Virus record (IMG/VR): IMGVR_UViG_2700989510_000026
Direction: 5' to 3' (one strand)
Origin: a virus
Taxonomy: Duplodnaviria; Heunggongvirae; Uroviricota; Caudoviricetes
DNA: 7,037 nt
How positions within the stretch are numbered: position 1 is the first letter of the stretch; every line of letters begins with the position of its first letter. The notes beneath the pieces were generated by a model. It did not search any database. It saw only the letters and a list, made by a program, of their open reading frames with translations, and was not told where the DNA came from. This document shows, piece by piece, positions 6,221-6,395 of the stretch. A program made the position numbers and the translations under genes.

Positions 6221-6395
6221 CAACTCCGGGAGCCGTGATTATGGCATTCAGGCTCTGCTAAAAATGCCAGATAACATTCCGACCAACCCCTGATTCAGGT
6301 TATAAATGACACAATATCTTGACAACATCCGTCACTGTCTGTCAGAAAATGTACTGCCAAATATAAGTATCATGTGAAGTACATCTACCCGTTTT

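Follow-up and report, generated by a model that had tools for sequence, protein, structure and literature searches.

PasC, a prophage-encoded small RNA that depends on Hfq, is the closest described relative of the locus analyzed here. In EPEC E2348/69, PasC has been validated by Northern blotting, by its loss in a Δhfq strain and by RIL-seq (Pearl Mizrahi 2021, PMC8550237); the main text of that study presents the Northern blots and the Hfq-dependent stability of the RNA, and its supplementary Table S2 lists pasC with a log2 fold change of -2.13 (padj 0.015), a comparison that we take to be Δhfq versus wild type. With 31 RIL-seq interaction partners, pasC of E2348/69 ranks 17th by interaction number. 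Its U-tract is 7 nucleotides long, and it is the second (sRNA-side) RNA in 100% of its chimeras, of which the 51 formed with the rne 5′ UTR are an example (PMC8550237). No target motif is reported for PasC in that paper, and the 5′ end of the RNA was set there from read coverage rather than from 5′ end mapping. In a recent survey (Zhu, Shabalina & Storz 2026, bioRxiv 10.64898/2026.05.13.724894), both pasA and pasC were located to the interval that separates the sialic acid esterase gene from the holin-lysozyme genes, with phages 2B8 (NC_049952) and YYZ-2008 (NC_011356) serving as the references for pasC and pasA, respectively. The EHEC homologs of PasA correspond to the Hfq-CRAC peaks EcOnc51 and EcOnc52 (Tree 2014, PMC4104026). 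Published work treats PasC as a trans-acting sRNA only.

The esterase-holin intergenic region and its small RNA

The window, that is, the whole 7,037-nucleotide stretch of the Caudoviricetes record IMGVR_UViG_2700989510_000026, contains a short gap (6222-6395) between two minus-strand genes, which encode a SASA esterase on the right and a P21-type holin on the left and form part of the late operon of what is now a degraded lambdoid prophage. Taken together with the two hairpins that flank it, this gap very probably represents the esterase-holin intergenic module of a lambdoid (Stx-phage-like) prophage. Its main features are as follows.

5934-6140, minus strand: class II (P21-type) holin gene S, 68 aa (Pfam PF04971, E = 1.4e-32)
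6185-6221, minus strand: late-strand intrinsic terminator (stem 6221-6195 of 11 pairs, 7 of them G-C, with a 5-nt loop and the tail TTTTGTTTT)
6354-6431, plus strand: pasC small RNA gene, 78 nt, as assigned from its 77/78 identity to E2348/69 PasC
6396-6432, plus strand: intrinsic terminator of PasC (11-bp stem 6396-6425 with 8 G-C pairs, an 8-nt loop and T7 at 6426-6432)
6433-7037, minus strand: SASA family sialate O-acetylesterase gene (nanS-p type), 3′ part, truncated by the end of the window (PF03629, E = 9.9e-12)

In RefSeq, the homologs of the two flanking genes are named class II holin and SASA family carbohydrate esterase, respectively. The initial annotation of this DNA had drawn attention to a strong plus-strand terminator with no annotated plus-strand gene to feed it and had suggested that an untranslated RNA antisense to the late operon might end there. 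The terminator is indeed present at 6396-6432 and, judged by sequence, is that of pasC. The E2348/69 PasC (NC_011601.1, 1290909..1290832, minus strand, prophage PP5; table S6 of PMC8550237) maps onto plus-strand positions 6354-6431, and the single difference, A for G at 6361, affects RNA position 8 in the single-stranded 5′ part. The published PasC Northern probe (CGCTGGCTAAAACGGGTAGATGTAC; table S6, PMC8550237) finds an exact match at 6379-6403; no site in the window matches the PasA probe with up to 3 mismatches, and the RNA is thus of the PasC rather than the PasA type. Consistently, the entire intergenic region aligns nearly base for base with the pasC locus of E2348/69 PP5 and with phage 2B8. 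As in E2348/69, the unit lies on the strand opposite to the late genes, between the SASA (PF03629) and P21-type holin (PF04971) genes, its terminator, an 11-bp stem followed by U7 that covaries across alleles, abutting the esterase stop codon (6433-6435). Apart from the substitution at RNA position 8, the two loci differ in that ISEc13 replaces the holin gene in PP5, whereas the holin gene is retained in the window. In sequence, probe site, synteny, strand and terminator, the unit in the window agrees with PasC in every respect that can be read from DNA. The plus-strand RNA suspected in the initial annotation is therefore real but already known, and its description there as novel does not hold: PasC has been validated since 2021 (PMC8550237), its PasA relatives had been recovered as the Hfq-bound EcOnc51 and EcOnc52 in 2014 (PMC4104026), and the genomic distribution was surveyed in 2026.

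The two terminators stand out from their background. A consensus scan yielded 11 terminator-like sites in the window, compared to 5.6 +/- 2.1 in shuffled sequence, and those of the plus strand (hairpin energy of -22.3 kcal/mol) and of the late strand (-20.1 kcal/mol; tail through 6185, UUUUGUUUU) on either side of 6222-6395 were the best two. When the plus-strand hairpin is read on the minus strand, the letters that follow are AAAACGGG in place of a T run, so the plus-strand terminator is unidirectional. The minus-strand terminator had been placed about 50 nt ahead of the holin gene; the terminator itself stands, but the holin ATG is at 6140 rather than at ~6150, and the tail ends ~45 nt upstream of it. 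Nor are the two terminators convergent, as had been stated: both face outward, the minus-strand one from the left edge and the plus-strand one from the right. They end transcripts leaving the intergenic region in either direction, and the minus-strand one also those arriving from the esterase gene.

The gene order of an intact relative, the prophage of O55:H7 CB9615, is Q, morons and tRNAs, esterase, pasC-type intergenic region, holin and lysozyme, with Q located ~5 kb upstream of the esterase-holin region and the morons and the esterase gene in between. The prophage in the window is much reduced. In its minus-strand ORF 4345-5307, the ATPase domain of gpA, the large subunit of the terminase (PF05876), is fused directly to an FNIII-A domain of the tail-tip protein J (PF24801), a deletion junction at which the head genes and most of the tail genes have been lost. 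No contiguous copy of the window was found among the complete E. coli genomes of the collection, the best match covering 66%; this, together with the terminase::gpJ junction, marks the prophage as heavily degraded and mosaic. Directly after the holin gene, where an endolysin would be expected, the minus strand encodes a 226-aa protein (5249-5929) with an N-terminal DUF1327 (YdfR-like) domain and an unassigned C-terminal extension of ~125 aa, and no lysozyme, endolysin or spanin gene is present within the window. The tail-fiber end carries two minus-strand cargo genes, one for a 790-aa protein (421-2793) that is labeled in matching genomes as a type III secretion effector, namely a pentapeptide-repeat E3 ubiquitin transferase of the HECT type, and one for a 196-aa effector of the NleG family (2843-3433). 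Fragments of Lom and of the N-terminal part of a tail fiber occupy 3677-4358; the strong hairpin between them (4024-4043, minus strand) is rich in G+C (GCCCGCCTGTTCAGGCGGGC, followed by GTTTTTG) and is probably a moron terminator of the usual kind. A further terminator-like hairpin (5489-5516, plus strand; 10 pairs followed by TTTTT) is located inside and antisense to the DUF1327 gene, with no plus-strand gene feeding it.

PasA, an 85-nt RNA of E2348/69 PP2 whose EHEC homolog is EcOnc51 of Sakai Sp12, shares with the PasC of the window the promoter block and the position between the esterase and holin genes. The first ~45 nt of the two RNAs are ~86% identical, and their terminator stems are related through compensatory changes; unlike PasC, PasA has a different, longer terminator loop, and its locus contains a second promoter-plus-terminator unit ahead of the esterase gene. 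The EcOnc51 peak falls on that half of a PasA-type RNA which includes the terminator, in the interval between the holin and esterase genes, and EcOnc52 of Sakai Sp4 corresponds to the second unit. We found this tandem unit between pasA and the esterase stop codon in E2348/69 PP2 (locus L005, 565-715), in Sakai Sp4 (L127, 499-640) and in Sakai Sp12 (L130), in each case with the TTGACA-N15-TGT layout and a PasC-type terminator flank. Since EcOnc52 persists in Sp4 in the absence of pasA, the second unit looks like a separate sRNA gene and not just the 236-nt minor form of PasA. EcOnc52 resembles PasC in the 5′ arm of the terminator (AGCCAGCGTC), in its 3′ flank (GCTGGCTTTTTTTATTATGCTGCCGG) and in promoter layout, whereas the RNA body, from promoter to terminator, is shorter and shows no relation to that of PasC. 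PasC looks like a hybrid that combines the body of the first unit with the terminator flank of the second.

Two other groups of prophage sRNAs were considered and set aside. The anti-sRNAs AgvB and AsxR (RF02702, RF02703) are likewise short, Hfq-bound RNAs with a variable 5′ end and a conserved terminator, encoded in the late region of lambdoid prophages of EHEC and EPEC; however, they occupy the moron site downstream of pR′, between moron genes and the next conserved ORF, rather than the esterase-holin junction, and their covariance models gave no match with cmscan in the window (E <= 1) or in 6100-6500 (E <= 10). In the absence of any sequence or structure match, assignment of PasC to this group was rejected. 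The multicopy prophage sRNA HnrS (EcOnc10-12) is unrelated and, in Sakai Sp9, is located at a different site, downstream of an endopeptidase gene. Rfam 15 has no model for PasC: the whole window was scanned at E <= 1 and 6100-6500 at E <= 10, and the matches obtained (snoRNAs, IS102 and DicF among them) were sub-threshold and attributable to chance only.

Putative promoter, structure and distribution of PasC

The plus-strand unit is preceded by the following putative promoter elements, each of which was read from the sequence.

6319-6324, plus strand: TTGACA, putative -35 element of PasC, invariant in nearly all related loci
6340-6348, plus strand: TGT-CAGAAA, putative extended -10 element (TGT at 6340-6342, CAGAAA at 6343-6348)
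6345-6350, plus strand: GAAAAT, alternative -10 element

The TTGACA and CAGAAA hexamers are separated by an 18-nt spacer that ends in TGT, and the combination of TTGACA, this spacer and a TG-extended -10 element is the likely promoter of PasC. Several observations point in this direction. The start predicted by the extended -10 element is near 6355, compared to the reported PasC 5′ end at 6354; furthermore, the sequence is essentially invariant up to 6350, with the variable RNA body beginning at 6351. The same layout (TTGACA-N15-TGT-NANAAA) recurs ahead of the paralogous second unit, EcOnc52 in Sakai Sp4, as TTGACA-N15-TGT-GAAAAA. In Sp4, IS629 has removed everything upstream of the TTGACA of that unit and the Hfq-bound EcOnc52 peak is still present, which suggests that the layout is an active promoter. 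It should be noted that CAGAAA is a weak match to a -10 hexamer, that a consensus promoter scan reported neither the PasC promoter nor a minus-strand candidate, and that the number of promoter-like sites in the window (15) is as expected by chance (14.7). For PasA, a 5′ end derived from cleavage of a longer transcript has been considered (bioRxiv 10.64898/2026.05.13.724894). The initial annotation had read the near-palindromic TTGACAA at 6319-6325 as offering -35 hexamers to both strands. The motif is there and likely serves as the -35 element of PasC on the plus strand, but the minus-strand promoter did not survive scrutiny (see below). None of the hexamers (TTGACAA; TTGTCA/TATAAC), nor the 23-codon ORF discussed below, exceeds chance on its own.

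The 78-nt PasC folds with an energy of -24 kcal/mol (z = -2.69) into an open 5′ part followed by the terminator hairpin. Just 5′ of the terminator stem lies the U-rich CCCGUUUU, which, together with the stem and the U7 tail, likely forms the predicted Hfq-binding module. For comparison, we assembled ~120 related loci from viral contigs by means of the 22-nt promoter block and added the reference loci; merging those that differed only in T-run length left 18 distinct PasA/PasC alleles. Their consensus structure contains a 9-bp terminator stem in which three of the nine pairs covary (C-G/U-A, A-U/G-C and C-G/U-G/U-A). No conserved structure was detected in the 5′ half across the 18 alleles, and most of the variation is concentrated there; a variable 5′ half combined with a conserved terminator stem is the usual build of an Hfq-dependent sRNA. 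In 122 of 124 related loci, the late-strand hairpin and tail (6221-6185) are retained with the holin start adjoining. A single change was recorded in this hairpin, from a basal G-C to a G-U pair in a variant represented by 21 loci, too little variation for a covariation test. The poly-C tract 6282-6293 (CCGACCAACCCC in the window) and the A run 6186-6194, in which the length varies, are the only hypervariable spots of the intergenic region and the only source of variation near the late-strand terminator. The related loci closely resemble one another, so recent common descent, and not selection, may account for the conserved promoter block and late-strand terminator. The intergenic module has been struck by insertions more than once, by ISEc13 just beyond the terminator in E2348/69 PP5, where it replaces the holin gene, and by another element near 6285 in locus L096.

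A similarity search recovered the intergenic region from 28 phage records, including those of Stx1a phages, H-19B, YYZ-2008, 434 and 2B8; the holin-proximal half and the PasA/PasC unit are found in an identical set of 28 records. Among 5426 complete E. coli genomes, ~700 contain the region, with no RefSeq annotation under it. For positions 6354-6431, 153 complete E. coli genome records show full identity, and 40 more match at 95-99%, a band that includes single-mismatch alleles such as that of E2348/69; the allele of the window, carried for example by O55:H7 CB9615 and by O145:H28 strains, is the commoner of the two in complete genomes. When one genome per species was scanned with the 22-nt promoter block, a match was obtained in Escherichia albertii only, in agreement with the published restriction to Escherichia and Shigella.

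Possible modes of action of PasC and of the late-strand terminator

On the plus strand, transcription would start near 6354-6356, from TTGACA, the 18-nt spacer and the TG-extended -10 element, and would stop at 6396-6432. The product would be an RNA of ~78 nt in which a variable 5′ part that lacks structure is followed by a U-rich stretch and then by a G+C-rich hairpin with its U7 tail. Given the 77/78 identity to E2348/69 PasC and the intact upstream region, we assume that the allele of the window is expressed as a ~78-79-nt Hfq-dependent RNA. PasC would then be a base-pairing regulator acting in trans, since it is Hfq-dependent in E2348/69 and always the sRNA partner in Hfq-bound chimeras.

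Being transcribed from the strand opposite to the late operon, PasC is complementary over its full length to the late transcript in the stretch from the esterase stop codon to the holin leader, and a mainly cis-acting role has to be weighed. PasC and the late-strand terminator would then form one cassette in which pairing of PasC with the late transcript, or collision between the two transcription units, tunes holin expression and the timing of lysis. The perfect complementarity to the late RNA at 6431-6354, the head-on orientation of pasC relative to late transcription, the strict co-occurrence of the holin-proximal half with the PasA/PasC unit in phage records and the presence of esterase gene 3′ ends among the RIL-seq targets of PasA are all compatible with such a role. 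However, the duplex region is located >210 nt from the holin ribosome-binding site, and RNAduplex revealed no significant complementarity of PasC to the holin translation-initiation region, 51 of 300 shuffled sequences scoring as well. Moreover, PasC persists in E2348/69 PP5, where ISEc13 has replaced the holin gene, as well as in the degraded prophage of the window, which argues for action in trans, and many trans partners were recovered by RIL-seq. A mainly cis-acting PasC is accordingly unlikely. We regard as quite unlikely the broader proposal that the esterase-holin intergenic region is one mobile cassette, with PasC acting additionally in cis and, through head-on transcription and its complementarity to the late transcript, setting the threshold or timing of holin expression together with the late-strand terminator; if true, it would couple a virulence-linked trans-acting sRNA to the lysis decision. 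As a separate observation, the 3′ end of the esterase coding region (6444-6474, minus strand) contains CUGGUGCUGGA, the motif given in table S7 of PMC8550237 for PasA binding to the E2348/69 esterase genes, and the esterase mRNA may itself be a candidate target of Pas sRNAs.

The second hairpin, an intrinsic terminator in the late direction, is conserved at the junction of an accessory gene with the holin gene, as would suit a moron-type terminator, and the curated record of phage 434 (OL657226) annotates a terminator at the equivalent site in the direction of the late genes. In these phages, only polymerase carrying the Q modification transcribes the late genes, and read-through to the lysis genes depends on Q; moron promoters such as the independent Pstx1 fire in lysogens (PMC7547250). 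On this basis we infer that the terminator may shield the lysis genes from non-antiterminated transcription in the lysogen and be overridden after induction, a role to which we give about an even chance. The hairpin and U-tract at 6221-6185 would stop polymerase that lacks the Q modification, for instance polymerase coming from moron or esterase promoters in the lysogen, and thereby keep stray transcription out of the lethal holin gene; after induction, it would be passed by Q-modified polymerase. A moron-cassette terminator, offered in the initial annotation as one alternative, comes close to this reading.

The other alternative offered for the minus strand, a transcript of ~100 nt that starts from TTGTCA, a 15-nt spacer and TATAAC (6299-6304) and ends at 6195-6185, like the 6S RNA that lambda produces from pR′/tR′, fares worse. 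The hexamers are present, the terminator is strong and conserved, and RIL-seq in E2348/69 recorded some Hfq-associated late-strand RNA from the intergenic region. Nevertheless, a 15-nt spacer combined with a -10 hexamer that lacks the final T (position 6) makes a poor sigma-70 promoter, and the scan reported no minus-strand promoter in 6222-6395. The late-strand RIL-seq fragment at the pasA locus (743494-743512) corresponds to window positions 6359-6341 and thus precedes the proposed start near 6292, so that this RNA comes from further upstream, on the esterase side. As with lambda 6S RNA and StxS, the minus-strand hairpin is a late-strand intrinsic terminator at which Q-dependent read-through is expected; however, tR′ lies directly downstream of pR′ and Q, whereas the terminator of the window lies downstream of the esterase gene, kilobases away from where Q is found in intact relatives, and lacks a credible promoter. 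With no Q gene in the window and neither pR′ nor a Q-binding context nearby, a 6S-type unit is very unlikely here, and the lambda-type arrangement was rejected.

Persistence, coding potential and biological meaning

Given the state of the prophage, pasC might be a silent relic, the hairpin merely stabilizing the 3′ end of the esterase mRNA. In favor of this are the extensive deletions of the prophage, with its terminase::gpJ fusion and no endolysin in the window, and the formation of the hairpin in late-strand RNA as well, immediately downstream of the esterase stop codon, with an energy of -18.1 kcal/mol. Against decay stand the intact promoter block, RNA body and terminator and the identity of 6354-6431 across the 153 complete genome records; furthermore, the near-identical allele of E2348/69 is abundantly expressed from a similarly disrupted locus, in which an IS element takes the place of the holin gene. 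We therefore consider a relic highly improbable.

The initial annotation had also raised the possibility that a small ORF upstream of the terminator encodes a micro-protein, so that the terminator would end a short mRNA.

6306-6377, plus strand: 23-codon ORF (MTQYLDNIRHCLSENVLPNISIM and stop), judged non-coding; shares sequence with the PasC promoter and with nucleotides 1-24 of PasC

This reading is extremely improbable: although the ORF is open in almost all of the ~120 related loci and has an AGG 7 nt upstream of its ATG, it is unremarkable at 23 codons and shows no coding constraint, 11 of the 12 distinct codon changes being nonsynonymous and only one synonymous (one locus with evident indel errors was left out of the count), codon 19 specifying N, S, G, D or Y, the length shifting to 25 or 50 codons in some alleles, the invariant first 15 codons coinciding with the promoter block, and the predicted peptide, which is not hydrophobic, being unlike a type I toxin. 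Moreover, the PasC 5′ end (6354) lies 48 nt downstream of the ATG, which places codons 1-16 outside the mapped RNA, and the mature RNA thus contains no start codon. A small protein gene was accordingly rejected in favor of the sRNA.

The intergenic region is blank in RefSeq records and absent from Rfam 15, so that readers working from sequence alone will go on finding an orphan terminator here, and the value of the present identification lies mainly in annotation; the putative promoter and the possible insulator role of the late-strand terminator are small additions rather than new biology. In attaching-and-effacing E. coli, both PasC and PasA are found as abundant partners of Hfq. The window carries the commonest PasC allele, intact in a prophage stripped of most of its lytic genes, and this persistence fits retention of PasC for the benefit of the host.
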